From IMG/VR virus record IMGVR_UViG_3300044632_001319: DNA of 64,000 bases. The stretch is one strand, 5' to 3'. Source of the stretch: a virus. Shown here piece after piece: positions 1-64,000 of the stretch. Position 1 is the stretch's first letter. Every line of letters starts with the position of its first letter. The position numbers were made by a program, and so were the translations under genes. The notes beneath the pieces were generated by a model. That model saw only the letters and a list, made by a program, of their open reading frames with translations, did no database searches and had not been told where the DNA came from.

Positions 1-203
1 TTACGAATGGCTCCCCATATATCATGGTCGTATGTAATGAATAATCTTCCAGGAAGAACAACATTCATGGGATAGCAGATTATTGGTGTTCCATTACCTT
101 GAGCAAGAACCACCTCATACATACCAGATATCTGTGGACCGCCCCTAGACAGAACGTCTTCTCTGAATTGAGTTATGGTTTCGCTTACTTTACTTGTTGC
201 CAT
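1..203 (-). CDS. Baseplate-tail tube initiator (gp54/gp19-like), runs off the window start
   Basis: Hand-translated ORF not in the track: MATSKVSETITQFREDVLSRGGPQISGMYEVV...NVVLPGR. The ATG overlaps the end of gp4. The 'I..F...GG...Y.V...LPG' pattern resembles tube-fold proteins, and the position next to gp4/gp48 is typical. Confidence 0.6.
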   Translation of the reverse strand, partial: MATSKVSETITQFREDVLSRGGPQISGMYEVVLAQGNGTPIICYPMNVVLPGRLFITYDHDIWGAIR

Positions 204-639
204 CGAATAGCTCTTTTTCTGTAAGTATTATAAACTTCCATGAATTAGATTCGCAAAACTGTTTTGCTGCTTCCCACTTACTGGTATTTATAGCATAAGT
301 AATATTTTCATTAATAAAAGATCTTTTTGATTTTCTTTTGCCCATTTCTGGTTTTTTTGTTTGTTTTGCTGGTTTGATCTCGACAATCATTGTTTCTACT
401 TCACCGCCTTTACTTCTTTTCTCGACAATAAAGTCTGGAATGTATTGGTGTACTAGATTGTCTACGGGTGATTTATAGGGTATACGAAGAGTCTCAAATG
501 ACCATCTTAGGATATTTACATTCTCGTCTAAGAATTTGCAAAATTTTCTTTCCCACAACGACCTACAGATAATATTATTTGGATCACCTATATATTTTGT
601 AGTATTCTTTGGTGTAAATCTAGTTTTGTAGGGCATCAA
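190..639 (-). CDS. gp4: Head completion nuclease (T4 gp4-like, TnsA-type endonuclease fold)
   Basis: KYIGDP..IICRSLWERKF, YIPDF, VEIKP..QT, KWEAA, F.ILTE motifs. Confidence 0.9.
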   Translation of the reverse strand: MMPYKTRFTPKNTTKYIGDPNNIICRSLWERKFCKFLDENVNILRWSFETLRIPYKSPVDNLVHQYIPDFIVEKRSKGGEVETMIVEIKPAKQTKKPEMGKRKSKRSFINENITYAINTSKWEAAKQFCESNSWKFIILTEKELFDGNK

Positions 640-657
640 AATATTTAGGAGAAAATA

Positions 658-1620
658 ATGCCAGGTTATGTATCAAACGTAGCATCGCTTCAAGAATCAA
701 CTGGAACATTTGTTTTTCCTAATGATGGAGAATTGGTCAGTAGCATACCATTATGGATGAAATTCTATTGTTTTGAGTATTCAAACACCGCACTCAATAG
801 GGTTGCTTCGTATTTAAGATCCCAGAATCTTGCAAATGTTCCTGGACTTTCAAATCTGAAAGCACAGATTTATGTTCCAGCACCAACAGCATACGAATCG
901 CTCACTTCTCTGCAATACAATCGGTCAGTAACTACTGCTGGTAATGCACTTCCTGGTCTATTAAACAAATTAGCAGACATGGCAAAGACATCCACGAATC
1001 CTTTTATAAAAGCAGTAGTAGATGGTGTGTCTCAGATTGCAGATGACGCAGAACAAACTGCAAAATTATTAGGAACAATTGCTGGTGGTGGATTTGGATA
1101 TGGTCAAGACATACCATTAGACTTAAACGATCTACAATTCGTCGGTGCTGGATCATATAGATCGTATGATATTAGATTATATTTGCCATGCTTATCCGTA
1201 GAGGATTCTATGAAAGCAGGAAAGATAATTAGATCATTTGAAGCACTGGCATTGCCTACAGCATTATCGGTGGGCGGTATTTTTGCAACTAGATATTTCC
1301 ACCCACCACTCTGGGTATTTGGAATTGGACCAGTTGATAGTATGAAGTTCGATCCTGACTGGACTGGATATCCACAATTGTGTGTGTTGCAATCCATTAA
1401 GGTAAGAAAGACCGCTGTAGATGCTAATTCAGTTTCTGCCTTCTATGATAATGCATCATTCAAACCCGTTGCATATTCAATAAGTTTACTATTCAGAGAA
1501 CTAGAACCAGCAATAAGAGTAGTCGGTCTTGGTGATCAGGTTGGAACCACCATAACAAATAGATCTGGTGCTATAATCGGAACTGGTACTAACATTGCAG
1601 CAAAGGTAACTGGACAGTAA
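658..1620 (+). CDS. gp48: Baseplate tail-tube cap (gp48-like)
   Basis: Divergent from gp4 and upstream of gp53. Has R.Y...L.L, F.PP.W, CVLQSI.V and P...ISL.F.ELEP motifs. Confidence 0.7.
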   Translation: MPGYVSNVASLQESTGTFVFPNDGELVSSIPLWMKFYCFEYSNTALNRVASYLRSQNLANVPGLSNLKAQIYVPAPTAYESLTSLQYNRSVTTAGNALPGLLNKLADMAKTSTNPFIKAVVDGVSQIADDAEQTAKLLGTIAGGGFGYGQDIPLDLNDLQFVGAGSYRSYDIRLYLPCLSVEDSMKAGKIIRSFEALALPTALSVGGIFATRYFHPPLWVFGIGPVDSMKFDPDWTGYPQLCVLQSIKVRKTAVDANSVSAFYDNASFKPVAYSISLLFRELEPAIRVVGLGDQVGTTITNRSGAIIGTGTNIAAKVTGQ

Positions 1621-1621
1621 T

Positions 1622-2569: not shown

Positions 2570-5500
2570 TGGCTGACGATTTTAAAACATTAACAACAGT
2601 AAAAAACTCTCAACCAGCAACAGCATCACCTGGTGATGATTCTGTATCTTTTAATGGCAATCTAATTAAAACAACAGAATCAAGAATTCAAGAATTAACA
2701 ATAATCAAGGAAACCGATTCTGGATCTATAGATTTTAAGATTCTCCCATGGGACACAACGGTATCGGCAAGTTCGCCTTTATCATCGATTGGGTTTAAGG
2801 AATCATTATACAATGGTTGCATTTTCGGAAGCATAATTGTATTTGATATTAGAAATTGGATCGATGAATTGCTTTTCAATGGACAAGAGAAACTAAATAT
2901 CAAATTTAAAATAGGTAAGTCTGATAAGTTAATAGACATGACCTTTTTCATCTATGATGCGAAAAATATAACAGACTCTGCCAATCATCTGGAAACAATG
3001 CCAGGTAATGAGAAAGTCAGTCTTTGGGAACTTCAATTTGTGAGTTCCGAAATATTCTTACCAAACTACAACGAAACCCTAATACAAGACGACGAAGATT
3101 TCGTTGGTTACATTTCATCAAAAACTGATGAAAACAAATCACTAGTAAATGAAATATTTACAAAGTTCAATTTAAAGAAATACAAAGTCGATGATTCAAA
3201 GACTGGAGTTTGGTTAAAATTTGATCACGTTTCATATCCGTGGATGAAGCGAAAAGGTCAAATGAGAGTTCCACAGTTATTGAAATACCTTACAAACTAT
3301 GCATGGGACGGTGGTTCTGGTAAACTATACGCAGACTATTTCTGGTGGGAAGATAGAAATGGTTGGAGTTTTAGATCTGTCGGTAAGATGATTTCAGAAA
3401 ACTCAGAACCAGTAGATGGTTTTGCTGTTACCATTGACGAAACAAATCCAAATAGAATTTTTTCACTTCAAGTATTGAAAGAATATAATATTCAAAATTT
3501 ACTTGACAATGGTGCATTGTTCTCAAACTATACAAGAATAGACCCAAATTATAATAATCCATATTTGGATTTTATTGATACAAACGAATCATTGGTAACT
3601 GAAATAAATTATTACGATTACCATAAAGACTTTGAATTAACAACACTCATCGACAAATACAAACTAATACCTGATTCGTTTTCGACTGATCCGAAAACGA
3701 AAAATAGCAAGGCAAAACCATCTGCAAGGATGGACGATGACATCTATGGTTATTTTAATGAAAATTATCTGAATACACCAACACCCCAAGAATGGGATGT
3801 CTATGGTAAAACGCTCAGTGGTCCTTGGTCTACGAAAGCATGGCAACCTCAGTTTGATTCTACTGATTTAGAGTTTGATCAATTCAAGATAATACATGAA
3901 TCTATTCGCAAACCTCTAAAGATCAAAAGAGAGGAATATGCTAGAAAAAAGAATATAAAAAGAAAATGGGAAGTATATCGCTGCACGGTTTGCTGCCACG
4001 AACACGGTGCTTTAGGATCTACCGCAGATATTGCTCTATGGCAAAATCCTGGTCCACTAAACGGATCAACATATAATGCTTTGTTTGGTCCCACTGGAAT
4101 CTTTGCAGATATGGATCAATCATACAAGATTGCAGCAGCAGGATCTTTCACCGATCTAATCAACTACCAAGCAGGAAATACATTCTATGAAAGAGGACTC
4201 ACCTATTCATATGATTTGTCCAAGAGTCCATACAATCAATCTCTTGGACAATTTTTCAATCTTACAGGTCCAGAAGCACCATCTGCTTATGTCAAATATG
4301 TAATAAATCGTGCAACTAAACAATATGATATAATGATAACAAAGATAAACGAGAGAATTGCTGATCTGCAAGATTTCGTTTCAAATAGAGCACCACTTCA
4401 TAAAGAAATAGCAGACATAGTTTTTGAAAGTGTCTTGATTGATAAGAATTCTAATCTAACAAGACCTATAGATCTTTCGCAGGGATTCAAATATGTTGGC
4501 GATTCTATAGTTGGTGAAGTAGTTCCAGATTGGCCAATTAAACAACAAGAGTTTGGAATGGTTCCAGATACATCAATACCCACAGGCAAGGGTGTTGCTC
4601 AAGTTGTATTTGGTCAGCAAAATGCACAGAGAACAATTACATTTAAAGGACTTGAGGATTCTCAAGAAGATTATTGCGTTAGATGTAATGATCAAGGAAC
4701 TGGAATAGTCTGTGAACCAGTTACATATACACCACAAGGAAGACCAATTTGTTCTGGAGTTGTTTTGGGTGGTGGTTTAAACTGTGCAGATGTTAATATA
4801 ACAGTTGACGATTTAAATTGTAGACCACCAGCAGGAGAACCACGATACTGCTGCTTACGTCGCGATGCATCGCTTGCAGATCCTTTCAATCCTCAACCAT
4901 CTGTAAATTTTTGTACCGATCTTTTTGGATTACCACTGCCTGGAGAAGATCTTGATAATGAGTTTGCCTGTTACTCTTTTTTTGACCCCAGGTTCCGAGG
5001 ATCATTAGTTTCAGAATGCAGTATGTGTGCTCCATATAATCCAGATTTTGGTGGTGGTGGTTCGGGTGTTCGTGGACCCACTGGTCCACGTGGACCCACT
5101 GGACCAACTGGACCATCAGGATTGCCAACTGAGCAAGATGTACGATACATCTCACCACAATCATTCACAAATTGTTCGAACGATCCTGTTATAAGAGGTT
5201 ATATAAAATATACATCCTCAGCAAGTCAGCAATATAGTCCAATATATCTTTATGCAGCACCATATCTCTGGGATACAAATATAAAAGATTGGTCCTATAT
5301 TGATTATGGAACAGAAAGTGGTCTGATTCCATCCATAGTTGATTTTGAAATAAGACAAGAAACAATTAATTGTCTGCAATCTGGAAATTGCTACAACACA
5401 ACATGTTTAAGTTCGACAGCGATTGAAGTTCTTCGAAGAACTTGTGTTGCTGAAATACAAATACTTAAGGTAGAACTTAAACTATACGAGTATCTAAAAA

Positions 5501-7902
5501 ATAAGATTGTTGAAGAATATACATCAAAGTGGAACATAGCATATACCGAATGGTATAACAGAAATGCTTTCTTCTTCTCCAAACTACCAGGAAAATCAAT
5601 ATTCAAGTCTGAAGAAAAAGATACTGTTGGCACACCATTATCTCTCGACAATATCAAATCAATAACACGAAAAGAGATAAGAGGAAGCAGATACGAATTG
5701 TTATCTCGCTATGTTGGTATCACTGGTGCTTCTGCTGGAGAATGGTTACATTCAATATTCTTTGGTGGTAATAGTGGTTCAACATATCACCCATATTATG
5801 ATCAGGGTTATACTCGGGATGCTTATATAACATCTAGAGAACCACACGCATGGTTTAGTTTTGCGGATTCTGATGCCACGGACGATCCAACATTCTTTGT
5901 AGACAATAAACAATTTACAAATTATGGTCCAGTATATAAAGGCGAAGAATATGATGAATCTTCCGTTCTACACATAGGAACCAATGATTTATCAGATATT
6001 ACAAATATCGATAATAGAAGAATTAAAACCTATGGTAACGCACAATCCGATTTGAATACCGAAACCAATCTTTCAGATTTCAAAGATACATTTAATTTCT
6101 ACAATACGAATGGTAAAAAACCACCAAACCTAAAGAAAGAAGAAATATCTTCATATGTTCGCATAGAATTCCAAACCCCAATTGGTTTGGATAGAATTCG
6201 TGATTTTCCAAATGGGTTTATCAGAGATGCTGGTTCAGAGTATTTCTTACCATACATTGTAAATCTAACATCTGGTCCATTTGGAAGACAAGGTGTCAAA
6301 TATAATGTTGCGGTAATAGGAATGGATCCTTATGGGTTTGATGTTGCAGTCAAGAAGATAAAAGATGAACTGCCAACCAATCAAAAACTTTTAGGAATCG
6401 ATAAGGGTAATTATTATAATTGGTGGAACCACGATACAGGTTCTGTGTTGTCGAAGACCGATTATCTAACTTCAGATTACAATGGAATGGATCTCTGGCC
6501 AGAGGCAGGATTTGAAACAGATTATCCCTACTATGCATATGATGCATCACAAGAAGATCTACACGGTGGTGCATATGATTTAGATTATCATATGGGTGGT
6601 GGGTATTATTTCGAAAACGATTCACAAGATTGGATGGAATCGCTTCATCACTATGGTATGAGTTCGGGTAAGCAATTTGATCCACTTTACAGAACATCTG
6701 TTGTGGGATCATATATTCTACCAAACAGTTATAGAAAATTAAAACCACACAGATCTTGGTGGTCCTTGTTTGTTCCAAGAAATCTATTCATACCAATAAG
6801 ATTTGCAAATATGTTCAAAACTCCAAACACAAAGGCAAGAGATTTGTTTGGTGGAAAGGGAATATTTACAATTTCTCCAAACTATTGGAGAACCTGGTAT
6901 GGTAGCGAATTTGAAACTTGGTTAGAACTAGGAAAAGGAAATGCGATTAAAGATCTACTGGAAACCGAAGCACCAGATCTATCTTTCTTTGTAGATACCC
7001 CAGAAGACAAAACATCTATTTCTCCATACAACACAAATCTGAATGGATATTTTAGAGAATCGCTGATGCACTACCTTGCAGGAAATTATATTCTGTATAG
7101 ACCATCACTGGTATCCACTGAGTTGTGGAAATATGATTTAAGTGGTGAATCAGATTATGGTCTAATAACACCACCAGTTGATACTGAGTATGAAATGTTT
7201 GATCGCAATTTTGCACTACAGTTCACCGTATTTGCCAGAAACACTCGCAAATGTGAGGATATTGGTCTTAAGTGTGCAAACCCACAGGCACTACTCAAAG
7301 GACTGGTACAATCTGCGGGTGGTTGCACAGCAGACCCATATTGCAATTGTCCAGCAAAAGAGTTGATGCCAACTGAACAAGAACCCACATATCTTGAACT
7401 TCACAGATTATATCAAGAAATAAACGAATGTTCTCTTATAGAAGAAAATCTTGATTCTTCTTGGTTAGGTTGTGAATGGGCAGATCCAAATTCATCTTGC
7501 AGTTGCAACTGCCCAGAACAAGGAATTAATTTTAAGAAATACCTAGAATATAACAGAACATATTCTACTTTCTGGAATGTCCCAAATAAATTCCCACTGG
7601 TGAGAATTGCTCAACTTAGACAATTGGATTCTCAGAAAATTAAAATAAGAATAGCACCAAATGATAAGATTCAAATTGGTTCTATAGTCGAAATAATCAA
7701 CGAAAACGAATTGCCAGAAGAAACAGTGAACAAATATAAGAAGATATCAGGAAGATGGTTAGTCTCAGAGATAGATCATTTAATGCCAGGTACTATTGGT
7801 TACATAATGACCGTAACACTTGTAAGAAACAGTCTACATTATAATCCAAACGAATCTCAAGCACCAAAAGCAGTATTTGGTAAACAAGATAGAGAAGAAT
7901 AA
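2569..7902 (+). CDS. Giant baseplate hub-like protein (gp27/gpD-like termini) with large internal insertions
   Basis: N-terminal ES....G.I...D...LLFNGQE and YFWWEDRNGWSFRS; C-terminal IQIGSIVEI...KISGRWLVSEIDH...LVRNS, typical of hub proteins. Lies between gp53 and gp25. Confidence 0.6.
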   Translation: MADDFKTLTTVKNSQPATASPGDDSVSFNGNLIKTTESRIQELTIIKETDSGSIDFKILPWDTTVSASSPLSSIGFKESLYNGCIFGSIIVFDIRNWIDELLFNGQEKLNIKFKIGKSDKLIDMTFFIYDAKNITDSANHLETMPGNEKVSLWELQFVSSEIFLPNYNETLIQDDEDFVGYISSKTDENKSLVNEIFTKFNLKKYKVDDSKTGVWLKFDHVSYPWMKRKGQMRVPQLLKYLTNYAWDGGSGKLYADYFWWEDRNGWSFRSVGKMISENSEPVDGFAVTIDETNPNRIFSLQVLKEYNIQNLLDNGALFSNYTRIDPNYNNPYLDFIDTNESLVTEINYYDYHKDFELTTLIDKYKLIPDSFSTDPKTKNSKAKPSARMDDDIYGYFNENYLNTPTPQEWDVYGKTLSGPWSTKAWQPQFDSTDLEFDQFKIIHESIRKPLKIKREEYARKKNIKRKWEVYRCTVCCHEHGALGSTADIALWQNPGPLNGSTYNALFGPTGIFADMDQSYKIAAAGSFTDLINYQAGNTFYERGLTYSYDLSKSPYNQSLGQFFNLTGPEAPSAYVKYVINRATKQYDIMITKINERIADLQDFVSNRAPLHKEIADIVFESVLIDKNSNLTRPIDLSQGFKYVGDSIVGEVVPDWPIKQQEFGMVPDTSIPTGKGVAQVVFGQQNAQRTITFKGLEDSQEDYCVRCNDQGTGIVCEPVTYTPQGRPICSGVVLGGGLNCADVNITVDDLNCRPPAGEPRYCCLRRDASLADPFNPQPSVNFCTDLFGLPLPGEDLDNEFACYSFFDPRFRGSLVSECSMCAPYNPDFGGGGSGVRGPTGPRGPTGPTGPSGLPTEQDVRYISPQSFTNCSNDPVIRGYIKYTSSASQQYSPIYLYAAPYLWDTNIKDWSYIDYGTESGLIPSIVDFEIRQETINCLQSGNCYNTTCLSSTAIEVLRRTCVAEIQILKVELKLYEYLKNKIVEEYTSKWNIAYTEWYNRNAFFFSKLPGKSIFKSEEKDTVGTPLSLDNIKSITRKEIRGSRYELLSRYVGITGASAGEWLHSIFFGGNSGSTYHPYYDQGYTRDAYITSREPHAWFSFADSDATDDPTFFVDNKQFTNYGPVYKGEEYDESSVLHIGTNDLSDITNIDNRRIKTYGNAQSDLNTETNLSDFKDTFNFYNTNGKKPPNLKKEEISSYVRIEFQTPIGLDRIRDFPNGFIRDAGSEYFLPYIVNLTSGPFGRQGVKYNVAVIGMDPYGFDVAVKKIKDELPTNQKLLGIDKGNYYNWWNHDTGSVLSKTDYLTSDYNGMDLWPEAGFETDYPYYAYDASQEDLHGGAYDLDYHMGGGYYFENDSQDWMESLHHYGMSSGKQFDPLYRTSVVGSYILPNSYRKLKPHRSWWSLFVPRNLFIPIRFANMFKTPNTKARDLFGGKGIFTISPNYWRTWYGSEFETWLELGKGNAIKDLLETEAPDLSFFVDTPEDKTSISPYNTNLNGYFRESLMHYLAGNYILYRPSLVSTELWKYDLSGESDYGLITPPVDTEYEMFDRNFALQFTVFARNTRKCEDIGLKCANPQALLKGLVQSAGGCTADPYCNCPAKELMPTEQEPTYLELHRLYQEINECSLIEENLDSSWLGCEWADPNSSCSCNCPEQGINFKKYLEYNRTYSTFWNVPNKFPLVRIAQLRQLDSQKIKIRIAPNDKIQIGSIVEIINENELPEETVNKYKKISGRWLVSEIDHLMPGTIGYIMTVTLVRNSLHYNPNESQAPKAVFGKQDREE
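5071..5121 (+). repeat. Collagen-like GPT/GPR repeat encoded by a near-perfect 18-bp tandem duplication
   Basis: cgtggacccactggtcca cgtggacccactggacca encodes RGPTGPRGPTGPTGPSG. Confidence 0.85.
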
Positions 7903-7910
7903 ATAATAAT

Positions 7911-52894: not shown

Positions 52895-52899
52895 TAAAA

Positions 52900-54417: not shown

Positions 54418-55151
54418 ATAAACTTTATATTAGACAATATGCTGGACTCGGAGATATTTTTTTTCTACAAAAACTAGTAAATAATTTTATAGATTTAGGT
54501 TATGATGAAATAATCTGGCCAGTTATTAAACATTATGAATATTTAAAAGAATATAATGAAAATGAAAAAATAAAGTATATTTCAATAGATTCTATGAGTG
54601 ATGAACTACAAAACTTGTATTTGCAGAATACAATTTCTAAAGTAAATGATACTAGTTTATATCTCCCAATAGATAAACTTTGTCATGTTGAAGGAAATTG
54701 TAATAATTTTATGGAACAAAAATATCATTCATTTCAGTTAAATTTTAATGATTGGCAAAAATATTGTAAATTTAAAAGATACCCAGAGCGAGAAAATAAA
54801 TGTAGAGAATATTTTGGCATCGATAAGGGGGATAAATTTATATTTGTTAATAATATTTTTGCTTCTCCTCCAGAAACTTATATTAGAGAGATGAATTATT
54901 CTACTAATTTTAAAATAGTTGAACACAAACTAGAGCATTTGAATATGTTTAAATTTTTTGATTTTTCATGGTTATTGGAAAATGCAGAAGAAATTCATAC
55001 TGTAGAAACTTCATTATGTTACTTGATTGAATGTTTAGATACAAAAGCTTCTTTGAATTTATATTCGAGAAAAATAAATGGATATAATCAATATTTAAAT
55101 TTTGATTATATTAAAAATATTTACAAAAAAGAATGGAATAAAATATTATGA
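54414..55151 (+). CDS. Putative GT-B glycosyltransferase-like protein
   Basis: GLGD.F N-terminus, LLENA.EIH.VETS; island context. Confidence 0.5.
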   Translation: MNKLYIRQYAGLGDIFFLQKLVNNFIDLGYDEIIWPVIKHYEYLKEYNENEKIKYISIDSMSDELQNLYLQNTISKVNDTSLYLPIDKLCHVEGNCNNFMEQKYHSFQLNFNDWQKYCKFKRYPERENKCREYFGIDKGDKFIFVNNIFASPPETYIREMNYSTNFKIVEHKLEHLNMFKFFDFSWLLENAEEIHTVETSLCYLIECLDTKASLNLYSRKINGYNQYLNFDYIKNIYKKEWNKIL

Positions 55152-55519
55152 TGGTAGAAGTTTCAGTTGGTGAAGTAATTGATAAATATACTATTTTAGA
55201 AATCAAGGAAGAACATATTACAGATTCTTCCAAGTTAAGTAATATCAAAAAAGAAAAATTTATAATTCAAAAAGAACTTGAAAAGATGAATTATCTTAAT
55301 AAGTTTGCTTCTGAAATAGCAGAACTGAAAGATATTAATTCACATTTGTGGAAGATTGAAGATGACATCAGAATCAAAGAATCAAGATTAGAATTCGATG
55401 AAGAATTTATTGAACTTGCACGATCTGTCTATATGACAAATGATCGTAGATTTGCTGTCAAGAATCGAATTAATACGTTATCAAATTCAAATATTAAAGA
55501 AGAAAAGTCGTATTCTTAA
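55148..55519 (+). CDS. DUF6165-like protein
   Basis: VSVGEVIDK.TILEIK, L..IN..LW.IED.IR, FIELARSVY.TND.R...K..IN. Confidence 0.8.
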   Translation: MMVEVSVGEVIDKYTILEIKEEHITDSSKLSNIKKEKFIIQKELEKMNYLNKFASEIAELKDINSHLWKIEDDIRIKESRLEFDEEFIELARSVYMTNDRRFAVKNRINTLSNSNIKEEKSYS

Positions 55520-55536
55520 TACAATATGGATTCATT

Positions 55537-56184
55537 ATGCCCAATAATAGAGAAGAACATATAAATTATACGAGAAGAGAATGGGAAACTTGGTCAATTT
55601 TTAAATTTATTCTTGATAAATTGAATAATTTGAATATAAAGACTGTTGTTGATCTTGGAGCAAATGTTGGAGAAGTCTCTAATGTATTTTTTGAGAAGAT
55701 ACCATCAATAGAAAATTTATATCTGTTTGAACCACAAAATGATAATTTTAACTTTATCTTCGATAGATTTCAAAATAATTCAAAATTTAAATTATTTAAA
55801 TATGGAATTTATTATGGTAAGGAACAATCAAACTTGTATAGACAAGATTCAAATGTTGGTGGATACTCCGTAGAAAAAAATATAATAGAAGAATATGAGA
55901 CTGTAGATCTTAAACCTTTAGAATATTTTAATATTAAAAATATTGATTTTATAAAAATTGATATCGAAGGTGCTGAATATAATGTTTTGCAAAATTCAAC
56001 TATTTTGAAAGAAATTCCATATGTGCTGGTAGAAGCACATCCACATGGATTTGATTTGTCGATATTGAATAAAATAAATTTGCATCAATATTTTTTAAAT
56101 TATTTAACTGAACATCTTAATACACACGATTTGATTTATTGCGATTCTGTTCAATATCAATATTTTTTGGAGAAAAAGAAATGA
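55537..56184 (+). CDS. FkbM-family SAM methyltransferase
   Basis: VDLGANVG, FEP, IKIDIEGAE. Confidence 0.88.
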   Translation: MPNNREEHINYTRREWETWSIFKFILDKLNNLNIKTVVDLGANVGEVSNVFFEKIPSIENLYLFEPQNDNFNFIFDRFQNNSKFKLFKYGIYYGKEQSNLYRQDSNVGGYSVEKNIIEEYETVDLKPLEYFNIKNIDFIKIDIEGAEYNVLQNSTILKEIPYVLVEAHPHGFDLSILNKINLHQYFLNYLTEHLNTHDLIYCDSVQYQYFLEKKK

Positions 56185-56963
56185 AAGTATTAGATATTGT
56201 TTTACAGGGCCCTATATGGAAAACTACAGTGGATACTGCAAAGTATTATCTGGAATTGCCATTTGTCAATAAAGTTATTATATCCACTTGGGATGATGAA
56301 CCCATTAATGAATATAATGAAAATGGTATAGAAGTTATAAAATCAAATAAACCTGTTAATGGAGTTGGTAATATGAATTACCAAATAGTTTCTTCGTTTG
56401 AAGGAATTAAAAAAACAGAGTCCAAACTTGTAGCAAAAATGAGATCTGATCAAATAATTCATAAAGACAGTATGAATTATCTTAACAATTTTATAACTGA
56501 TAATATAGATGATACTGATTTAATGTATTCTGATGGATCAAAAAGAAAAGGAAATGTATTTGTGATAGGAATGAATAAAATATTTCCATTCCATCCACAA
56601 GACCATATCTTTTGGGGATATAGGGAAGATGTTTATAGGGTGTTTGATATACCACTAAAACCAGCAAGGATGAAAAGAGACACGGCAGATTTCACAAAAG
56701 AAGTGCGATGTAACATTTATTTGGGAGCAATGTATTTTAAGCAGTTTTATCCAGAAGTGGAAAAGTATATTGATAATTTTGAAGATTATTTGGTAGACAA
56801 TCCAAAAAAGTTAGATGCTCTAATCCTGTCAGAAAAAACAAGAGATAAAGTTTTTAAAGTTCTTCCTAAATTTAGTATGTTTTGGGAGAAATATAAATGG
56901 GATGCATATCCATATTCTTGGTATGGGTCTATGGGTGAATACTATTATGAAGATTTAAAATGA
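56181..56963 (+). CDS. WavE-like LPS/glycan synthesis protein
   Basis: IVLQGP, VIISTW, N.NYQI.SS..G, K.RSD, FHP.DH.F.G. Confidence 0.75.
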   Translation: MKVLDIVLQGPIWKTTVDTAKYYLELPFVNKVIISTWDDEPINEYNENGIEVIKSNKPVNGVGNMNYQIVSSFEGIKKTESKLVAKMRSDQIIHKDSMNYLNNFITDNIDDTDLMYSDGSKRKGNVFVIGMNKIFPFHPQDHIFWGYREDVYRVFDIPLKPARMKRDTADFTKEVRCNIYLGAMYFKQFYPEVEKYIDNFEDYLVDNPKKLDALILSEKTRDKVFKVLPKFSMFWEKYKWDAYPYSWYGSMGEYYYEDLK

Positions 56964-57691
56964 TTTCATTTAATGGTCACTCTGGATGCTCTATAAAGAT
57001 GTTATCGGATGGTATTGTCAGAAAAACATCATCCAATACTGATTATAACAGTAGATTACAAAATCAGATGTTAAAGCAAAAACAGTTTTATCATCCAGTT
57101 ATAAGGACAACGGATATAGTTGATTGTGGTTATAATTCAGATGGATTATTTTATTTTGATATGAAATATATTCGTGGTGTAAATCTATCGATATATTTTC
57201 AACAAAATACTTTAAATTCTTGCATGAAAATAATAGATTTGTTTTCTAGTTTTAATACTGAAAACCAAATTGATATTAGTGACGCAATTAATAAAAAAAT
57301 AAGAACTATTAATATTGATGAAGAATCATTGAAATTAATTACAGATCAAAGATGGACGGTATCTAGTGGATATTGTCATGGTGATTTGACATTCGAAAAT
57401 GTTCTGATAAATAGTGATGGTGTCTATCTTATAGATTTTTTAGATTCTTTTGTCGAATGTCCAATTATTGATGAATCTAAATTGTTGCAAGATTCTTTTT
57501 GTTATTGGTCATTTAAAAACAATATTCCAAAAAGAAAACTTATTACGGTTTGTGATAAGTTTGACACCAGACAACACTATTGTATGTTGTTGTTGCATTT
57601 ATTTAGAATAATACCATATGCAAATGCAGCAAAGAAAGAAAATTTATTATGTATGATAAATCGAGTGAAGACCAAAATAAACCAATTTTAA
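56960..57691 (+). CDS. APH/choline-kinase-like phosphotransferase
   Basis: GHSGC, VRK, CHGDLTFEN.L, LIDF, D..KL.QD. Confidence 0.8.
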   Translation: MISFNGHSGCSIKMLSDGIVRKTSSNTDYNSRLQNQMLKQKQFYHPVIRTTDIVDCGYNSDGLFYFDMKYIRGVNLSIYFQQNTLNSCMKIIDLFSSFNTENQIDISDAINKKIRTINIDEESLKLITDQRWTVSSGYCHGDLTFENVLINSDGVYLIDFLDSFVECPIIDESKLLQDSFCYWSFKNNIPKRKLITVCDKFDTRQHYCMLLLHLFRIIPYANAAKKENLLCMINRVKTKINQF

Positions 57692-58719
57692 TAATACCAG
57701 CTGCTGGAAAGTCATCTAGATTTCAAAATATGAAACCAAAATGGATGCTTACACATCCATCTGGAAAATTAATGATTGAAAAAGTAGTAGAAGGATTATC
57801 TATTAATGATTATTCTATGATCTATTTTGTAGTTTTGAAAGAGCATTGTCAAAAATATGAGGCAGATGTAATATTGAAACAATGTTTTCATAACATATCA
57901 CATAAAGTGGTAATACTGGAAGAGTCTACAAACAGTAGTCCAGAAACTGTATATAATTGTTTAATAAAAGAAAATATTAGTGGATCAATAGTAGTAAAGG
58001 ATTGTGATTGTTTAGTATCATATAATAGTCCAAATATGACAAATTTTGTTGTTGGTATAGATGTCAATTCCACTATTAAAAATATTCAACAAAAATCATT
58101 TATATTAGTCAATCAAGACAATATTATACAAGAAATAGTAGAAAAGAAAATAGTTTCTGATAAGATTTGTCTTGGGGTGTATGGGATGAATTCTTATAAT
58201 TTTATAAAATCATTTTTTCGCTTGAATCAAACTATAGGAACAGAATTATATTTTAGTCATATAATTTCAGACATTATTGATACTGATAATAAAGTTTTTG
58301 TTGAGATAGATGCAACAGAATTTATAGATTGGGGAACTAAAGAAGAATGGTTTTCTTCGGCAAACCTTAAAAATACATATTTTGTAGACATTGATGGTGT
58401 CATGTTGGTAAATACTGGAAAATACGGAAGTAAAAATTGGTATAATACAATAGAACCTATAGAACAAAATATATCAACAATCAAACAGTTATCGGATGAA
58501 GGTCATGAAATTATTTTTGTAACTTCAAGACCTTTCGATGCACTTCAAAAATTTAAAGATCTATTGAAGAATAGAAATATAAAATATAAAACTATAATTG
58601 ATTCGTGTCTACATTCTAAACGAATCATCATTAATGATTTTGCAGCAAGTAATCCATTTCCAAGTTGCTTGGCAATAAATATTCCAAGAGATGAACTTAT
58701 TGAATCTTATTTGAGGTAA
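57649..58719 (+). CDS. Sugar nucleotidyltransferase fused to a HAD phosphatase
   Basis: IIPAAG.SSRF...PK, KDCD, DWGT; C-terminal FVDIDG, TSR, IIND. Confidence 0.8.
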   Translation: MYDKSSEDQNKPILIIPAAGKSSRFQNMKPKWMLTHPSGKLMIEKVVEGLSINDYSMIYFVVLKEHCQKYEADVILKQCFHNISHKVVILEESTNSSPETVYNCLIKENISGSIVVKDCDCLVSYNSPNMTNFVVGIDVNSTIKNIQQKSFILVNQDNIIQEIVEKKIVSDKICLGVYGMNSYNFIKSFFRLNQTIGTELYFSHIISDIIDTDNKVFVEIDATEFIDWGTKEEWFSSANLKNTYFVDIDGVMLVNTGKYGSKNWYNTIEPIEQNISTIKQLSDEGHEIIFVTSRPFDALQKFKDLLKNRNIKYKTIIDSCLHSKRIIINDFAASNPFPSCLAINIPRDELIESYLR

Positions 58720-58721
58720 TT

Positions 58722-59717
58722 ATGAATATAATGGTCACAGGAGCAGCAGGTGGTATTGGATCTACTGTTTGTAATTCTTTAGATTTCCATGGTCATAAAT
58801 TGACTATGATTGATAATTTAGAATATGGTTATATAGAAAATATAAAATACAATAGACAATATGATAATTTTTACAAATATGATATTCGCGAATTGAATCC
58901 AAATAAGTTTCAACCAACCATAGAATATGATGCTATTTTGCATTTGGCAGCAATCACATCACTACCAGAATGTGAAAACAATGTTCAAAAAACTATTTCG
59001 GTCAATTTAGAGGGAACTGCTAATATTTTAGAATTTGCCAGAAAACGAAATATTCCTTATGTGTTTTTTACTAGCACCAGTGCTGTTTATGAAAATAATA
59101 AACAAGACACATTAGAGGAATCATATCCAGTATCTCCTAGACTTTGGTATTCTTTATCTAAAAAAATGTCTGAAGATTTGTGTGAATCGTATAGAAATAA
59201 TTATGGGATGACGATAACCACTGCTAGATTGTTTAATGTTTTTGGACCAAAACAGGATATGTATAGAAAAAATCCACCATTAATAAATTATCTTGTTAGG
59301 GAATTTATTAATAATAGACAACCTATTTTGCATTCAACTGGATTACAACGAAGAGATTATATAAACATTGATGATGTTATTGGATTTTTAAATTCTTGTT
59401 TGGTAAAACAACCAAATATGATTTTAAATGTTTGTACTGGTAAAACAATAACAGTTCGAGATATAGTTGATATTGTTAGAAAGACTTTAAATGTAAAAAT
59501 CGAACCAATATACAGAGATGCAACAATGTTGTGGGATTCATATCCAGAATTATTTTCTGGCAATTATTCTCTGTCGAAAGATGTGGTATTCAGTGAAACT
59601 AATAAAGTATGTAGAGGATCAAATCTTCTAGCACAACAAATACTCGGATGGAAACCTAGTATTGAGATCGATGAATCCATACAACAAACAGTCTTAAAAA
59701 TTAAGGATAATATATGA
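58722..59717 (+). CDS. NAD-dependent nucleotide-sugar epimerase/dehydratase (extended SDR)
   Basis: VTGAAGGIG, HLAA, STSAVY, YSLSK, RLFNVFGP, RDYI.I.D. Confidence 0.9.
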   Translation: MNIMVTGAAGGIGSTVCNSLDFHGHKLTMIDNLEYGYIENIKYNRQYDNFYKYDIRELNPNKFQPTIEYDAILHLAAITSLPECENNVQKTISVNLEGTANILEFARKRNIPYVFFTSTSAVYENNKQDTLEESYPVSPRLWYSLSKKMSEDLCESYRNNYGMTITTARLFNVFGPKQDMYRKNPPLINYLVREFINNRQPILHSTGLQRRDYINIDDVIGFLNSCLVKQPNMILNVCTGKTITVRDIVDIVRKTLNVKIEPIYRDATMLWDSYPELFSGNYSLSKDVVFSETNKVCRGSNLLAQQILGWKPSIEIDESIQQTVLKIKDNI

Positions 59718-59780
59718 ACATTGATACTGTTGTATGGTTGATTATTCATCAAATTCTAGTCCAAATGCTGATGTTGTCTT

Positions 59781-59788
59781 TATAAATA
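59781..59788 (+). promoter_or_regulatory. T4-type late promoter inside the glycan island
   Basis: TATAAATA followed by an AAAGGA RBS and ATG at 59809. Confidence 0.55.
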
Positions 59789-59808
59789 CAAGAAAGGAAT
59801 TATAGAAT

Positions 59809-60441
59809 ATGAATTTTAACCGTGATCATGGAACAGCGATTCCAAAAAATGATTTCAATCAAAATATTGATTGTGAAAGCATAAAGAATGTTAATACTAG
59901 AATTTTGGGTGGCGGTGCTTCTCAAAATTTTGTTGCATTTAAACTTCTAGAAAACTACATTGCATATGAAAAACCAGAATATGTAGTTGAAATTGGTTCA
60001 CAAAAAGGTGGTCTATCCGTATATCTTGGAACTATTGCATGTGTAGCTGAACAATTTTTATTTCACACATTTGATATCACCAAATCAGATTGGAATAATA
60101 GAGCTCATGAAGGTGCTGGACATTGGTTTGAAAAAATGGAATCAATCTGTCCATTTTGTAAATCATTCGAATCTGATATATTCTCAGAATATTCTTATAA
60201 TTTGATCTTTGAGAATATTAAAAAATATAAAACTTTAATTATATGTGATGGGGGAAATAAAGCTAAAGAAGTTTATATGTATTCTTCTTTACTTAAGAGT
60301 GGTGATATGATTATGGCGCATGATTTTGGACATGAAATTTTTGACCAAAATATCAATTATAACATATTACAACCACATGAACCATTTAATCAAAGATTTA
60401 TTGATAATAAGACTTTATTTAAAACATTTGTGAGAATATAA
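59809..60441 (+). CDS. Class I SAM methyltransferase-like protein (CmcI/Methyltransf_24-like)
   Basis: VEIGS.KGG, TFDI, ICDGG, LKSGD...AHD. Confidence 0.7.
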   Translation: MNFNRDHGTAIPKNDFNQNIDCESIKNVNTRILGGGASQNFVAFKLLENYIAYEKPEYVVEIGSQKGGLSVYLGTIACVAEQFLFHTFDITKSDWNNRAHEGAGHWFEKMESICPFCKSFESDIFSEYSYNLIFENIKKYKTLIICDGGNKAKEVYMYSSLLKSGDMIMAHDFGHEIFDQNINYNILQPHEPFNQRFIDNKTLFKTFVRI

Positions 60442-61028
60442 TGAATATTGATTTTGAACTAAAAACCCATTGGTTGTGGGAACATATTTGGGGAAATACA
60501 AATCGACCAGATTGGAAAATGCCAAACATATTTTGTCATATTTTATTTAAATATGCTAATGATATTGGAAGATTGTCTAACATAAATCATGCAATTGAAA
60601 CTGGAACTTATGAGGGAAATAGTTCTATTTGTTTTTCTTATTTATTCGAAACGGTTGACACCATAGAAAAATATCCAGATCATAATCCGTATAAACACAA
60701 ATCATTAATTTCCATTCACAATGATATTAAAAATACAAATCCAAATATTAATTTTCATTATGGAAATAGTCCAGATCATATGAGAGAAATTTTTATTAAA
60801 AATCCAGATACTGATTATTTTATCCTATTAGATGCTCATACTGGCAGGGAATCTCCTGTCATGGAAGAGTTAAAATGTATAAAGGATTATAGTAATAGTA
60901 ATAATCATGTAATAATGATTGATGATTGTAATACAATTTCTGTAGATTATGATAAAGTTCTTGAAATAAATCCAAAATACAATATCATACATACTGGTAT
61001 TGGAAGTGACATAGTTTTAATTTATTGA
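60441..61028 (+). CDS. SAM methyltransferase-like protein
   Basis: IETGTY.G, TIE, GNS, LDAH, P...EL..I, IMIDD. Confidence 0.7.
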   Translation: MNIDFELKTHWLWEHIWGNTNRPDWKMPNIFCHILFKYANDIGRLSNINHAIETGTYEGNSSICFSYLFETVDTIEKYPDHNPYKHKSLISIHNDIKNTNPNINFHYGNSPDHMREIFIKNPDTDYFILLDAHTGRESPVMEELKCIKDYSNSNNHVIMIDDCNTISVDYDKVLEINPKYNIIHTGIGSDIVLIY

Positions 61029-61038
61029 GGCAAATATT

Positions 61039-62058
61039 ATGAAAAAGATTCTTGTACTTGGCGGTGGTGGTTTTATCGGTTCTCATCTTGTAAAACGATT
61101 CAAGAGAGAAGGTCATTGGGTAAGAGTTGTTGATCTTAAATATCCAGAATTTTCAAAATCTCCAGCAGATGATTTTATCATAGGAGATTTGAGACTACAA
61201 CAAATTTGTGATAAGGCATTTGATATTCAGTTTGATGAAGTTTATCAACTAGCAGCAGATATGGGTGGTGCTGGTTATATTTTCACAGGAGAGCACGATG
61301 CTGATATCATGCATAATTCTGCTCTTATTAATTTAAATGTCGTAGAGCGATGCCATAAGACTAAAGTGGGAAAGGTTTTCTACTCGTCTTCGGCATGTAT
61401 GTATCCAGCATACAATCAAGAAGATCCTGACAACCCCAAATGCTCGGAGGAGTCTGCATATCCAGCAGCACCAGATAGCGAGTATGGTTGGGAAAAACTA
61501 TTCAGCGAAAGACTATATCTCGCATATGCTCGCAATCACGGAATGAGGGTTAGAATTGCTCGTTATCACAACATCTTTGGACCAGAAGGAACATGGCAGG
61601 GTGGAAAAGAAAAAGCACCAGCAGCAATGTGTAGAAAGGTAGCAGAAGCAAATAATAGTTCAATGATTGAGGTATGGGGAGATGGACAACAAACACGATC
61701 ATTCTTATACATCGATGACTGTATTGATGCTACAATTCGACTTATGAATTCAGATTGTACAGTTCCAGTTAATATTGGTTCTGAGGAAATGATCAAGATT
61801 AATGATCTGGCAGAAATGGCAATTGAAATATCTGGAAAAAATATTGATATTAAAAATGTAAAGGGACCAGTTGGGGTTCGTGGAAGAAATTCAGATAATA
61901 AATTATTTAATAGAATGGTTGGATCTCCAAATTATCGTTCACTTCGTGTTGGTATGGAAACAACCTATGATTGGATAGAAACACAAGTTTTAAATCGAAA
62001 TAAAAAAGAATATTGTAGTTCTGCTCAAATGGATGTAGAAGACCGTTTTCGTAGATGA
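61039..62058 (+). CDS. GDP-mannose 3,5-epimerase-like SDR
   Basis: GGGGFIG, QLAADMGGAGYI, YSSSACMYP, YGWEK, RYHNIFGP.GTW.GGKEKAPAA.CRK, VWGDG.QTRSF, GP.GVRGRNS. Confidence 0.88.
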   Translation: MKKILVLGGGGFIGSHLVKRFKREGHWVRVVDLKYPEFSKSPADDFIIGDLRLQQICDKAFDIQFDEVYQLAADMGGAGYIFTGEHDADIMHNSALINLNVVERCHKTKVGKVFYSSSACMYPAYNQEDPDNPKCSEESAYPAAPDSEYGWEKLFSERLYLAYARNHGMRVRIARYHNIFGPEGTWQGGKEKAPAAMCRKVAEANNSSMIEVWGDGQQTRSFLYIDDCIDATIRLMNSDCTVPVNIGSEEMIKINDLAEMAIEISGKNIDIKNVKGPVGVRGRNSDNKLFNRMVGSPNYRSLRVGMETTYDWIETQVLNRNKKEYCSSAQMDVEDRFRR

Positions 62059-62228
62059 AAAAGAATAATAAAATTTACTACTTGATTGGATATCTTGACG
62101 GGTATCCAATTATTTCTATACCAACCTATAAGAAACAATTCAATAGAAATAAATTAATAAAAAATTATTCTCTAGATAAAAATGTTAAATTTAAAATACA
62201 AACTAAAGATGTTTTTATTGGTTGGTAA
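62055..62228 (+). CDS. Small basic hypothetical protein (57 aa)
   Basis: Hand-translated MKKNNKIYYLIGYLDGYPIISIPTYKK...FIGW*; ATGA overlap with the epimerase stop. Confidence 0.45.
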   Translation: MKKNNKIYYLIGYLDGYPIISIPTYKKQFNRNKLIKNYSLDKNVKFKIQTKDVFIGW

Positions 62229-62246
62229 ACTTATAAGGACTATAAT

Positions 62247-62852
62247 ATGACTTGGAAAAATTCACAAGGCGGATACTCACAATATGGAGAAGATTTAATC
62301 TTAAAAGAAATATTATCAGAAAATGGATATTTTTTAGAAATAGGTTCTTTTTGTCCATTTATATTTTCAAATACAAGATTTTTAGTGGATCGTGGATGGG
62401 GTGGATGCTATGTAGATGGATGTTCATTTGCTATTGGACGTTTTATTCAAGAATATAAAGATAATGACAAAATTAAAATTGTACAGGCACTCATAGGAGA
62501 TGCTGACAGATTTATCAAATTTTATAATAGTATTACTGATGCAATTTCGTCTACAGATATAAATCATGCTGATAAATGGAAAAAAAGTGGTTCTCAATTC
62601 AGAGAAGTCTATACTGTTATGATTAGTATGAATACATTACAAACTATTTTACCACCTGTTATTGATTTTATCAACATTGATGTTGAAGGACAAAGTGCTT
62701 ATCTTTCTACATTGATAAATTATGATCAATTACAAACTAAAGTTGTTTGTATAGAACATGATAATTCAATTGATATGATTAATTCTTATATGAGTAAATT
62801 TAATTTTACAGTTCATTATACAAATGCTACAAATATAATCTATAAGAGATAA
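62247..62852 (+). CDS. FkbM-family methyltransferase
   Basis: YSQYGED, FLEIG, SNT, GW.G, FINIDVEG, CIEH. Confidence 0.85.
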   Translation: MTWKNSQGGYSQYGEDLILKEILSENGYFLEIGSFCPFIFSNTRFLVDRGWGGCYVDGCSFAIGRFIQEYKDNDKIKIVQALIGDADRFIKFYNSITDAISSTDINHADKWKKSGSQFREVYTVMISMNTLQTILPPVIDFINIDVEGQSAYLSTLINYDQLQTKVVCIEHDNSIDMINSYMSKFNFTVHYTNATNIIYKR

Positions 62853-62896
62853 AACTATTTTATAAATTAACCTAAATACAATAAAGGATTTATACA

Positions 62897-64000
62897 ATGA
62901 AACCAAAACTAACACTCTGCATGATCGTCAAGAATGAATCTCATATTATTCATGAGTGTCTTGAATCTATTTACAAGTATATTGATTATTGGGTAGTATC
63001 AGATACTGGTTCTACAGACGGAACACAAGACATCATAAGAAAGTTTTTTGAGTCAAAGGGAATTCCTGGCGAAATTCACCAAGACGAATGGAAAAACTTT
63101 GGACATAATCGCACGTTAGCATTAAATCATTGCCAAGGCAAAGCAGAATATGCGTGGATGATCGACGCAGATGATAAGGTAGAAGGAAATTTTAAGTTTC
63201 CAGAAAATCCAGATGGTGATGCATATGTTGTAAGAATGGGAAGAGAAGACTTTTCTTGGTGGAGAACCCAGATATTCAAGGTAGATTCTAAGTGGGAATA
63301 TCGTGGTGTTCTTCATGAATATCCATCATGCACGACAAACGATAAACCAGTATTGGTTAAAATCGAAGGAAAGTACAACATCAATGCGAGAACGCTTGGT
63401 GCAAGAAATGTTGGTATTACTGTCATTGAGAAGTACAAGAAAGATGCTGAACTCCTAGAGAAAGCATTGATTGATGAACCTACAAATACCAGATATCAGT
63501 TTTATCTTGCACAATCGTATTTTGATTCTCAGCAATGGGAAAAGGCAATTGAAGCATATATGAGAAGAGCACAATCTGGTGGATGGCCTGAGGAAGTTTA
63601 TTATTCATTGTATAGAATTGCAATTTGCCGTGCAATGTTAGATAGACCATGGTCGGAGATTCAAGCATCGTTTCTTGATGCATACAACTATCGACCAATT
63701 CGTGCAGAACCACTAATTCATATCGCACAAGCACTGAGAACAAAATTTGATCAACCAGCAGCAGCATTTGTTTTTGCTAGAATCGCAGCAGAAATACCAT
63801 TCCCAACAACTGAGATCTTGTTTGTTCCTGATCTGTTATATCGATTTACTGCTCTTGATGAATTGGGTGCTGTTGCTCATGCTGCTGGAAGACCAGAACT
63901 TGGATATCTTGCATGTAAAAAACTGCTAGAAGATGGTCGTGTTCCAGAGGAACACCTGACAAGAGTTCAAAATAATTACAAACATTACCAAACAATCATG
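62897..64000 (+). CDS. GT2 glycosyltransferase with TPR repeats, runs off the window end
   Basis: Hand-translated MKPKLTLCMIVKNESHII.ECLES...DTGSTDGT...NFGHNR...IDADD...GVLHE...RYQFYLAQSY. Preceded by CCTAAATA (62871) and AAGGA. Confidence 0.88.
   Translation, partial: MKPKLTLCMIVKNESHIIHECLESIYKYIDYWVVSDTGSTDGTQDIIRKFFESKGIPGEIHQDEWKNFGHNRTLALNHCQGKAEYAWMIDADDKVEGNFKFPENPDGDAYVVRMGREDFSWWRTQIFKVDSKWEYRGVLHEYPSCTTNDKPVLVKIEGKYNINARTLGARNVGITVIEKYKKDAELLEKALIDEPTNTRYQFYLAQSYFDSQQWEKAIEAYMRRAQSGGWPEEVYYSLYRIAICRAMLDRPWSEIQASFLDAYNYRPIRAEPLIHIAQALRTKFDQPAAAFVFARIAAEIPFPTTEILFVPDLLYRFTALDELGAVAHAAGRPELGYLACKKLLEDGRVPEEHLTRVQNNYKHYQTIM

Follow-up and report, generated by a model that had tools for sequence, protein, structure and literature searches.

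The degenerate tetranucleotide RGCY is read by R.CviJI and M.CviJI from chlorovirus IL-3A, the former cleaving RG^CY and the latter yielding 5mC. R.CviJI is the only natural RGCY enzyme in the literature that we found (PMC3681635), where CviJI, SetI and FaiI are listed as rare natural examples of ultra-frequent cutters and only CviJI is given an RGCY site; chloroviruses package their restriction enzymes, which degrade host DNA (PMC3681635, PMC7019647). In marine myovirus-like genomes from metagenomes, RGCY is the motif most commonly methylated, as m4C (Hiraoka et al. 2022, PMC8919816); this viral methylation is unmatched by host methylation motifs, with m5C invisible to the method used. Rusinov et al. 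2018 (PMC6286503) surveyed how virulent phages avoid short palindromic restriction sites, with no mention of RGCY, cyanophages or T4-like phages, and none of the papers found to contain the word RGCY deals with its avoidance by phages.

We analysed a window of 64,000 nucleotides (the whole stretch of DNA presented), which covers the structural and replication module of an uncultured T4-like myovirus from lake water (Table 1), with no tRNAs found in it. The window holds 34 RGCY sites in total: 16 AGCT, 13 GGCC, 4 GGCT and 1 AGCC, against 289 GATC and no CCGG. An earlier note, made by eye, had called AGCT, GGCT and AGCC scarce, CCGG absent and GATC abundant; all of this holds, and its 13 GGCC positions are exact. 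Under a first-order Markov model on both strands, the bottom four of all 4-mers are CCGG (observed/expected, O/E, 0/40), GGCT+AGCC (5/186, or 0.03), AGCT (16/152) and GGCC (13/57). For RGCY as a whole the O/E is 0.09, or 0.06 excluding forced sites. A synonymous-codon shuffle of the window predicts 315 ± 13 RGCY sites (z = −22) and 38 CCGG; a third-base shuffle that holds protein, codon usage and all dinucleotides constant predicts 186 ± 8 (z = −19) and 25, respectively. Under both the Markov and the codon-shuffle nulls, RGCY and CCGG fall far below an O/E of 1. An explanation of the scarcity by low G+C, by codon usage or by a bias in dinucleotides has a virtually negligible chance of being right: GCC/GGC trinucleotides are somewhat low (0.55) and GGCC alone stands at 0.74 under a second-order Markov model, but the low GCC/GGC is a by-product of the purge itself, both shuffles reject such an explanation (|z| of about 19 or more), and RGCY is at its expected frequency in T4 (35% G+C; O/E 1.03), KVP40 (1.02) and S-CRM01 (0.94). 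The depletion is independent of codon and dinucleotide usage.

Table 1. Coordinates of the window, its glycan island and the surviving RGCY sites.
Feature	Position	Strand	Remark
Whole window	1..64000		T4-like baseplate, fibre, sheath, portal, prohead, gp23; then UvsW, gp47/46, clamp, clamp loader, RegA; then glycan island
AT-rich glycan-synthesis island, 27-31% G+C	52501..62500	+	GT2, GT10, WavE, SDR epimerases
GGCC, TGG-CCA Trp-Pro	4532..4535	+	
GGCC, TGG-CCA Trp-Pro	6497..6500	+	
GGCC, TGG-CCA Trp-Pro	18091..18094	+	
GGCC, TGG-CCT Trp-Pro	20935..20938	+	
GGCC, TGG-CCT Trp-Pro	22995..22998	+	
GGCC, TGG-CCA Trp-Pro	27560..27563	+	
GGCC, TGG-CCA Trp-Pro	31675..31678	+	
GGCC, TGG-CCT Trp-Pro	34279..34282	+	within tail sheath gene
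GGCC, TGG-CCA Trp-Pro	35272..35275	+	
GGCC, TGG-CCT Trp-Pro	52761..52764	+	
GGCC, TGG-CCA Trp-Pro	54517..54520	+	in ORF 54384-55151; frame derived from ORF start
GGCC, GGC-CCT Gly-Pro	56208..56211	+	sole avoidable GGCC; WavE-like gene of AT-rich island
GGCC, TGG-CCT Trp-Pro	63585..63588	+	
AGCT sites	209, 8611, 15188, 18449, 19235, 19442, 21464, 32144, 38061, 39228, 41060, 55046, 57699, 60045, 60102, 60261		
GGCT sites	9, 2571, 35803, 35906		
AGCC site	44983		
CAGCTG, around surviving AGCT	8610..8615		other three start at 15187, 39227, 57698

The four avoided words, AGCT, AGCC, GGCT and GGCC, form a set that reverse complementation maps onto itself, GGCT and AGCC are depleted equally on the coding strand, and the neighbours RGCR and YGCY are over-represented (AGCA 1.2–1.7, TGCT 1.7, GGCA 1.45); the palindromic closure together with this over-representation is the pattern expected from a dimeric DNA-reading enzyme. 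The suggestion that the selecting specificity was either RGCY or GGCC plus AGCT can be narrowed: GGCT/AGCC, invisible to enzymes reading GGCC or AGCT, are the most depleted of the set, so a single degenerate RGCY specificity fits better than the two-enzyme option. The recognition word of CviJI is identical to the avoided word, and CviJI is likewise virus-borne and from fresh water; it works inside algal cells, however, chloroviruses protect themselves by methylation rather than site loss, and its star activity (RGCR, YGCY) has no counterpart here, both words being enriched. The absence of CCGG is a separate avoidance and is absolute.

Codon context reveals how the word was removed. Of 380 alanine codons that follow a purine 18 are GCY, whereas after pyrimidines the figure is 318 of 678 (odds ratio 0.056, p = 1e-53), confirming the impression that GCA replaces GCY after purines. 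Lys/Glu/Gln-Leu is never written xAG-CTN in the window, Trp-Leu takes TTR in 21/21 cases and Trp-Ala takes GCA in 11/11, and the codons AGC and GGC each precede a pyrimidine only twice. In the frame nRG|CYn all 12 RGCY sites are forced Trp-Pro, a dipeptide that is not itself depleted (12 versus 9.3 expected), and in the alanine frame NNR|GCY depletion is ten-fold (18 versus 155). RGCY is therefore removed by synonymous change, with 12 of the 13 GGCC survivors forced by the protein (TGG-CCN, which the called frame reads as Trp-Pro, as had been proposed); the thirteenth does fall in the AT-rich island, again as proposed. The purge spans codon boundaries and is present in all three frames, which argues for selection on the word itself rather than codon bias or decay of methylated cytosine, and supports the earlier claim of long-term selection as word-level avoidance through synonymous recoding.

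Methylation and deamination together have depleted CpG in vertebrates, and RGCY cytosines methylated by a host or phage enzyme could have been lost in the same manner. A cytosine methylase of no assigned specificity does occur in close relatives, and TG/CA dinucleotides are somewhat high in the window (1.28). Such decay is nevertheless very improbable as the cause: the central G and C of NNR|GCY are alanine codon positions 1 and 2, where deamination would alter the protein, yet this frame is as strongly purged as stated; losses there run through GCA or a pyrimidine-ending preceding codon, so that it is the flanking R and Y that change; what takes the place of RGCY is RGCR and YGCY rather than RGTY or RACY; and CCGG, as well as ACGT in relatives, is at exactly zero over at least 100 kb, beyond the reach of mutation pressure alone.

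Avoidable RGCY sites number 6 versus 35.6 expected in the AT-rich island and 16 versus 360 elsewhere in the window (binomial p = 0.011), an approximately four-fold higher relative density that we read as amelioration. Seven of the 16 surviving AGCT sites are embedded in CAGCTG or GAGCTC (p = 2e-5), and across the clade CAGCTG is not purged (32 versus 39 expected), an observation that counts against an avoidance reading.

We next compared the window with its freshwater relatives. RGCY depletion is common to the whole clade, and every relative with capsid identity of at least 72% has an RGCY O/E of at most 0.25. At four-fold sites the window is 46–50% identical to either of two long relatives (G1 and G2), versus 36% by chance; an inherited purge would have decayed, so the purge is actively maintained, and each lineage of the clade maintains it. 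Between relatives, synonymous positions are nearly saturated. By contrast with this shared trait, avoidance of CCGG, ACGT, TCGA and TGCA flips on and off among close relatives in mosaic fashion, all-or-none and fast: observed/expected counts are 0/160 for ACGT and 2/110 for CCGG in G1, 0/195 and 0/93 in G2, 14/101 for TCGA in relative L011 and 7/75 for TGCA in L005. The RGCY purge is maintained actively yet leaky, with CCGG and ACGT at exact zero. The GC-rich start of G1 has no match in Rfam or in the phage collection. The sole match of the clade in the genome collection, a contig with a capsid 82% identical, is binned with a Terrimicrobiaceae MAG, probably a binning artefact.

The trait extends to cultured phages. 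Six cultured Kyanoviridae (S-PM2, P-SSM2, S-SKS1, S-SSM7, HTVC008M and Melnitz) have RGCY O/E values of 0.18–0.39, and their hosts, Synechococcus, Prochlorococcus, Pelagibacter (SAR11) and an OM43 methylophile, span three phyla. As in the window, their depletion includes the non-palindromic GGCT/AGCC, CAGCTG is spared, and S-PM2, P-SSM2 and S-SSM7 have no CCGG at all; the window is more extreme than any of them, its capsid protein is only ~55% identical to theirs and its phage comes from lakes. The earlier note had taken the depletion for a host fingerprint. Its presence across the freshwater clade and in phages of cyanobacteria, SAR11 and OM43 makes it instead a phage-family trait, with no power to tell hosts apart. 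Better suited as a strain-level fingerprint are the labile words that are present or absent in full (CCGG, ACGT, TCGA, TGCA and GATC), which could serve in matching phages to hosts or strains. That the trait tracks a phage family through three host phyla is unusual for host-specific restriction and so weighs against restriction-site avoidance.

On balance, we consider restriction-site avoidance driven by a putative RGCY-specific nuclease the probable explanation. Phage DNA would repeatedly meet sequence-specific double-strand DNA endonucleases during infection, one recognising RGCY, a degenerate palindrome and the R.CviJI specificity, and a second recognising CCGG; each site would raise the chance of a damaging cut, and site-destroying synonymous changes would be fixed. 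The leftovers would then be the unrecodable Trp-Pro sites plus a thin scatter of new ones, mostly in alanine codons and recently acquired DNA. The agent would be a nuclease, most likely encoded by the host. Pressure per site appears weaker at RGCY than at CCGG, perhaps because the enzyme is encountered only sometimes, because T4-type recombination mends some cuts, or because a phage methylase covers most leftover sites. About 100 RGCY sites remain per genome, still cleavable by a potent enzyme; this residue speaks against avoidance, and the model needs a quantitative per-site cost. In the cases of Rusinov et al. 2018 (PMC6286503), short self-complementary words are likewise under-represented through synonymous recoding, with variation between related phages, and CCGG in the window, like ACGT, TCGA and TGCA in its relatives, is a textbook example. 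RGCY, the chief word avoided here, departs from classic site avoidance: it is a degenerate 4-mer that amounts to 3 bp, and its purge is family-wide whatever the host, and leaky rather than absolute.

No RGCY-cutting enzyme, nor a gene for one, was found in any host or phage, a further point against avoidance. The window has no nuclease or DNA methylase gene except gp46/47, nor a CviJI-type nuclease paired with an adjacent cytosine methylase. A tblastn phyletic screen for genes that all six depleted cultured genomes have and S-CRM01 and T4 lack returned no nuclease, although distant homologues could escape it; its only hits were a small kinase-like protein, an unknown protein of 153 aa and tail proteins, and neither the window nor G1 or G2 contains a match to any of these. 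G1 and G2 share a conserved orphan DNA methylase of SPPY type (N4-cytosine-like) between dUTPase and DNA polymerase. It has no solved relative, no informative name among 3404 environmental homologues and no detected nuclease domain among its scanned neighbours, and is absent from the cultured depleted phages; Pfam likewise finds no nuclease domain in the neighbours of the P-SSM2 methylases.

These genes bear on an unlikely alternative, in which the RGCY nuclease goes with the phage family and not with its hosts (encoded by this phage or by competing relatives) and destroys host or rival DNA in the manner of the packaged chlorovirus enzymes, the phage's own genome being spared by its few sites, by RGCY m4C, or by both. 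It would fit a purge that is family-wide over three host phyla, in contrast to the other avoided words, which vary among close relatives, and it gains from the orphan methylase of G1 and G2 and from the viral origin of the only known natural RGCY enzyme, which comes from a virus group that packages such enzymes and degrades host DNA with them (PMC3681635, PMC7019647). The marine myovirus-like genomes (PMC8919816) point the same way: these are also aquatic myoviruses, with the same word and the same puzzle that no host of the study shares the motif, a mismatch that tells against avoidance (with m5C invisible there). They modify RGCY where the window phage removes it, so phages of such kind also protect RGCY by modification, which is a point in favour of the avoidance reading. 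Set against a phage-borne enzyme are the missing nuclease and methylase genes of the window (gp46/47 aside), a phyletic screen that yielded no nuclease, the lack of the SPPY methylase in cultured depleted phages, and the ~100 residual sites that its own enzyme would put at risk. In its fullest form, which we hold to be distinctly doubtful, the nuclease would be the family's own, and aquatic T4-like phages with ordinary cytosine would tell self from host or rival DNA by RGCY, cutting where it is frequent and unmethylated and staying safe through the purge, m4C of the remainder, or both. If true, this would account for the trait across cyanobacterial, SAR11, OM43 and lake hosts, and for marine myoviruses methylating a motif found in no host.

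Restriction-site avoidance is well known, but not the almost total purge of a degenerate word that is effectively 3 bp long, least of all one kept throughout a family of abundant aquatic phages irrespective of host. The purge points to a widespread putative RGCY-specific nuclease. Taken with the RGCY methylation reported for marine myoviruses, it makes RGCY a central battleground of aquatic T4-like phages. The identity of the enzyme would tell host defence from phage weapon, and would bear on how cytosine-containing T4-like phages discriminate their own DNA from that of the host.

On recount, every count and coordinate in the earlier note proved correct: the window holds 13 GGCC sites, 12 of them TGG-CCN translated as Trp-Pro and the thirteenth (56208, GGC-CCT) inside the AT-rich island, together with 16 AGCT, 4 GGCT, 1 AGCC, 0 CCGG and 289 GATC. 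By first-order Markov expectation, the lowest four of all 4-mers in the window are CCGG (0 observed/40 expected), GGCT/AGCC (5/186), AGCT (16/152) and GGCC (13/57). We used two protein-preserving null models, a synonymous-codon shuffle and a third-base shuffle; the latter swaps among same-family codons with the same next base, keeping codon usage and every dinucleotide but leaving one of three frames frozen. Against the codon shuffle, the window has 34 RGCY sites (AGCT, AGCC, GGCT and GGCC) where 315 ± 13 are expected (z = −22) and 0 CCGG where 38 are expected; against the third-base shuffle the expectations are 186 ± 8 (z = −19) and 25. The avoidance proposed in that note therefore persists, rather than returning to an observed/expected ratio (O/E) near 1, when codon usage and dinucleotides are controlled. 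ACGT (56 versus 127, z = −7) and GTAC (102 versus 183) are about half-depleted in the window under the codon shuffle, although ACGT is entirely missing from several close relatives; the pattern may reflect intermittent selection, or sites regrowing once pressure was lost. Four hexamers, none including RGCY or CCGG, have zero copies in the window: CTGCAG (7.6–11.8 expected), AGTACT (4.7–11.3), GCATGC (4.2–8.7) and TACGTA (2.2–6.4).

Codon choice in the window follows the same rule. GCT/GCC makes up 47% of the Ala codons that follow a pyrimidine but 5% of those that follow a purine; the Ser codon AGC and the Gly codon GGC each occur 100 times with a purine next and twice with a pyrimidine next; codons for Lys, Glu and Gln always end in A ahead of Leu or Pro codons starting CT or CC; and following Trp, Leu is invariably TTR and Ala invariably GCA. 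Twelve sites remain in the frame nRG-CYn, all at Trp-Pro, the sole context without a synonymous escape. The dipeptide itself is not avoided (12 versus 9.3 expected), and selection against RGCY therefore stops short of the protein level. RGCY is replaced by RGCR and YGCY, with AGCA, GGCA and TGCT enriched, so the mutations sit at the outer, degenerate positions of the word. Because of this, and because the Ala frame is depleted ten-fold even though its central GC is non-synonymous, methyl-cytosine deamination is ruled out as the cause.

Reverse complementation maps the avoided set onto itself, and GGCT and AGCC are equally rare on the coding strand, a symmetry that points to a symmetric protein acting on double-stranded DNA rather than an RNA-level effect. 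Of the two specificities offered initially, RGCY (CviJI-like) or GGCC plus AGCT, the single RGCY specificity fits better, since GGCT/AGCC are the most depleted of its words. CAGCTG escapes the AGCT purge, both in the window plus two long related contigs, G1 and G2 (32 versus 39 expected), and in cultured genomes (143 versus 183); its O/E, about 0.8 in both the clade and cultured Kyanoviridae, contrasts with 0.1–0.35 for other NAGCTN words. Among the 16 surviving AGCT sites of the window, 7 are CAGCTG or GAGCTC (p = 2e-5). Any explanation must account for the spared CAGCTG, the CAGCTG/GAGCTC survivors, the half-depleted ACGT/GTAC and the absent CTGCAG, AGTACT and GCATGC.

All large ORFs of the window lie on the + strand. 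PHROG and Pfam matches cover structural genes (T4-type baseplate wedge protein, tail fibres, sheath, portal and gp23 major head protein), replication genes (UvsW-like helicase, gp47/gp46, sliding clamp, clamp loader and RegA) and an island of 27–31% G+C carrying glycosyltransferases and sugar-nucleotide enzymes. The window's capsid and portal proteins share only 51–57% identity with their counterparts in cultured cyanomyoviruses and the OM43 phage Melnitz, and at least 20 lake-water metagenome runs contain near-identical DNA; the window therefore belongs to an uncultured T4-like myovirus that recurs in fresh water. Within the window, the island has about 4× the relative density of avoidable RGCY sites (p = 0.011), which fits newer acquired DNA where the purge is still under way. 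It is mostly missing or rearranged in G1 and G2.

Locations of features in the window and in loci of its relatives
Feature	Location	Content or context
CAGCTG sites	window 8610, 15187, 39227, 57698	
AT-rich island	window 51412-62852	GT10- and GT2-type glycosyltransferases, WavE-like protein, NTP-transferase/HAD protein, two SDR epimerases/dehydratases, sugar-type methyltransferases
Predicted orphan SPPY methylase	L086:589-1932, L087:595-1932 (G1, G2)	between dUTPase and family-B DNA polymerase
Start of G1	L088:1-5200	50–52% G+C, no ORF >280 aa

A capsid-based scan of IMG/VR gave 80 related loci (57–88% identity), which we arranged on a capsid tree. RGCY O/E is ≤0.25 in nearly all relatives with at least 72% capsid identity, the exceptions being two short loci (0.30 and 0.45). 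It is mostly 0.2–0.35 in the group at about 65% identity (one subclade 0.55, one locus 0.74), about 0.7 in that at about 60%, where the low words are GGCC and GCGC, and about 1 in outgroups. Avoidance of CCGG, ACGT, TCGA, TGCA and GATC is an all-or-none mosaic that flips between close relatives. TCGA avoidance is near-complete (for example, 14/101) in L011, L013, L050, L022 and L024, TGCA avoidance strong (for example, 7/75) in L005, L006, L014, L015 and L018, and GATC avoidance weaker in L040 and L049 (18/51, 15/30); these patterns change between phages with similar capsids. G1 (108 kb) and G2 (118 kb), both collinear with the window, are almost free of ACGT (0/160 and 0/195) and CCGG (2/110 and 0/93), whereas their RGCY O/E is 0.19 and 0.23. 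The RGCY purge is thus deep, conserved and leaky, and purges of the other palindromes are absolute and short-lived. Compared with G1 or G2, the window is 46–50% identical at four-fold degenerate sites (36% by chance); with synonymous sites so nearly turned over, the RGCY purge must be actively kept up in each lineage.

The start of G1 carries many internal direct and inverted repeats (45–160 bp) and matched nothing in Rfam or the phage collection; its RGCY O/E is 0.5–0.76, yet it has ACGT 0/17 and CCGG 1/21. A further relative, the 27.7-kb contig JBMOHW010000020.1 (capsid gene 82% identical; ACGT 0/41, CCGG 0/20), was binned with a Terrimicrobiaceae (Verrucomicrobiota) MAG; the placement is an artefact of binning or else a weak lead to the host.

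Among cultured phages (whole genomes, except an 80-kb sample of KVP40), RGCY is depleted in S-SKS1 (Synechococcus, O/E 0.18), S-PM2 (Synechococcus, 0.24), P-SSM2 (Prochlorococcus, 0.24), HTVC008M (Pelagibacter, 0.25), Melnitz (OM43, 0.34) and S-SSM7 (Synechococcus, 0.39), GGCT/AGCC likewise. Values for S-CRM01 (freshwater Synechococcus), KVP40 (Vibrio) and T4 (E. coli) are 0.94, 1.02 and 1.03, and S-CRM01 has no strong 4-mer avoidance. Avoidance of RGCY is therefore a trait shared by Kyanoviridae-like aquatic T4 phages with hosts in three phyla, and not the fingerprint of a single host that the earlier note had suggested. Other words are also purged in these phages: GCGC 0/71, CGCG 0/34 and CCGG 0/126 in P-SSM2; CCGG 0/155 in S-PM2 and 0/170 in S-SSM7; TCGA 2/205 and CGCG 1/33 in HTVC008M; GATC 23/460 and CGCG 1/55 in Melnitz.

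Classical restriction-site avoidance is the best-supported account of the RGCY and CCGG purges: a CCGG-specific enzyme would impose strong, absolute selection, and an RGCY-specific enzyme weaker, per-site selection over very long time. In the main rival, the phage family itself bears an RGCY nuclease, to destroy host DNA or compete with other phages, a reading favoured by the distribution of the purge across hosts and by the purely viral methylation. RGCY (m4C) is the commonest methylated motif in marine myovirus-like genomes, and the authors of that study note that the viral motifs lack matching host motifs (PMC8919816). In the cited literature, chlorovirus R.CviJI is the one natural enzyme named for RGCY (PMC3681635), and restriction enzymes packaged by chloroviruses break down host DNA (PMC3681635, PMC7019647). 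Our analysis, however, gave no positive gene-level evidence for a phage-borne nuclease. PHROG and Pfam found neither a DNA methylase nor a restriction-type nuclease in the window, and a tblastn screen for genes that the six depleted cultured genomes all share and S-CRM01 lacks turned up no nuclease.

G1 and G2 share a conserved predicted methylase (445–447 aa, ending TLEGLFGD or TLESLFGE) with an SPPY motif, a hallmark of many N4-cytosine methylases. None of its 3404 environmental homologues has an informative name, and none of the cultured phages tested has a counterpart. L057, L060, L064, L075, L077 and L078 carry distant copies, about 9 kb downstream of the capsid gene. Under restriction-site avoidance, the cost of RGCY must be quantitative, since the purge leaks and each genome still has roughly 100 RGCY sites that are residual or cannot be avoided. 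One reconciliation would be that the phage also methylates RGCY, in which case fewer sites would make full protection of the packaged genome likelier.
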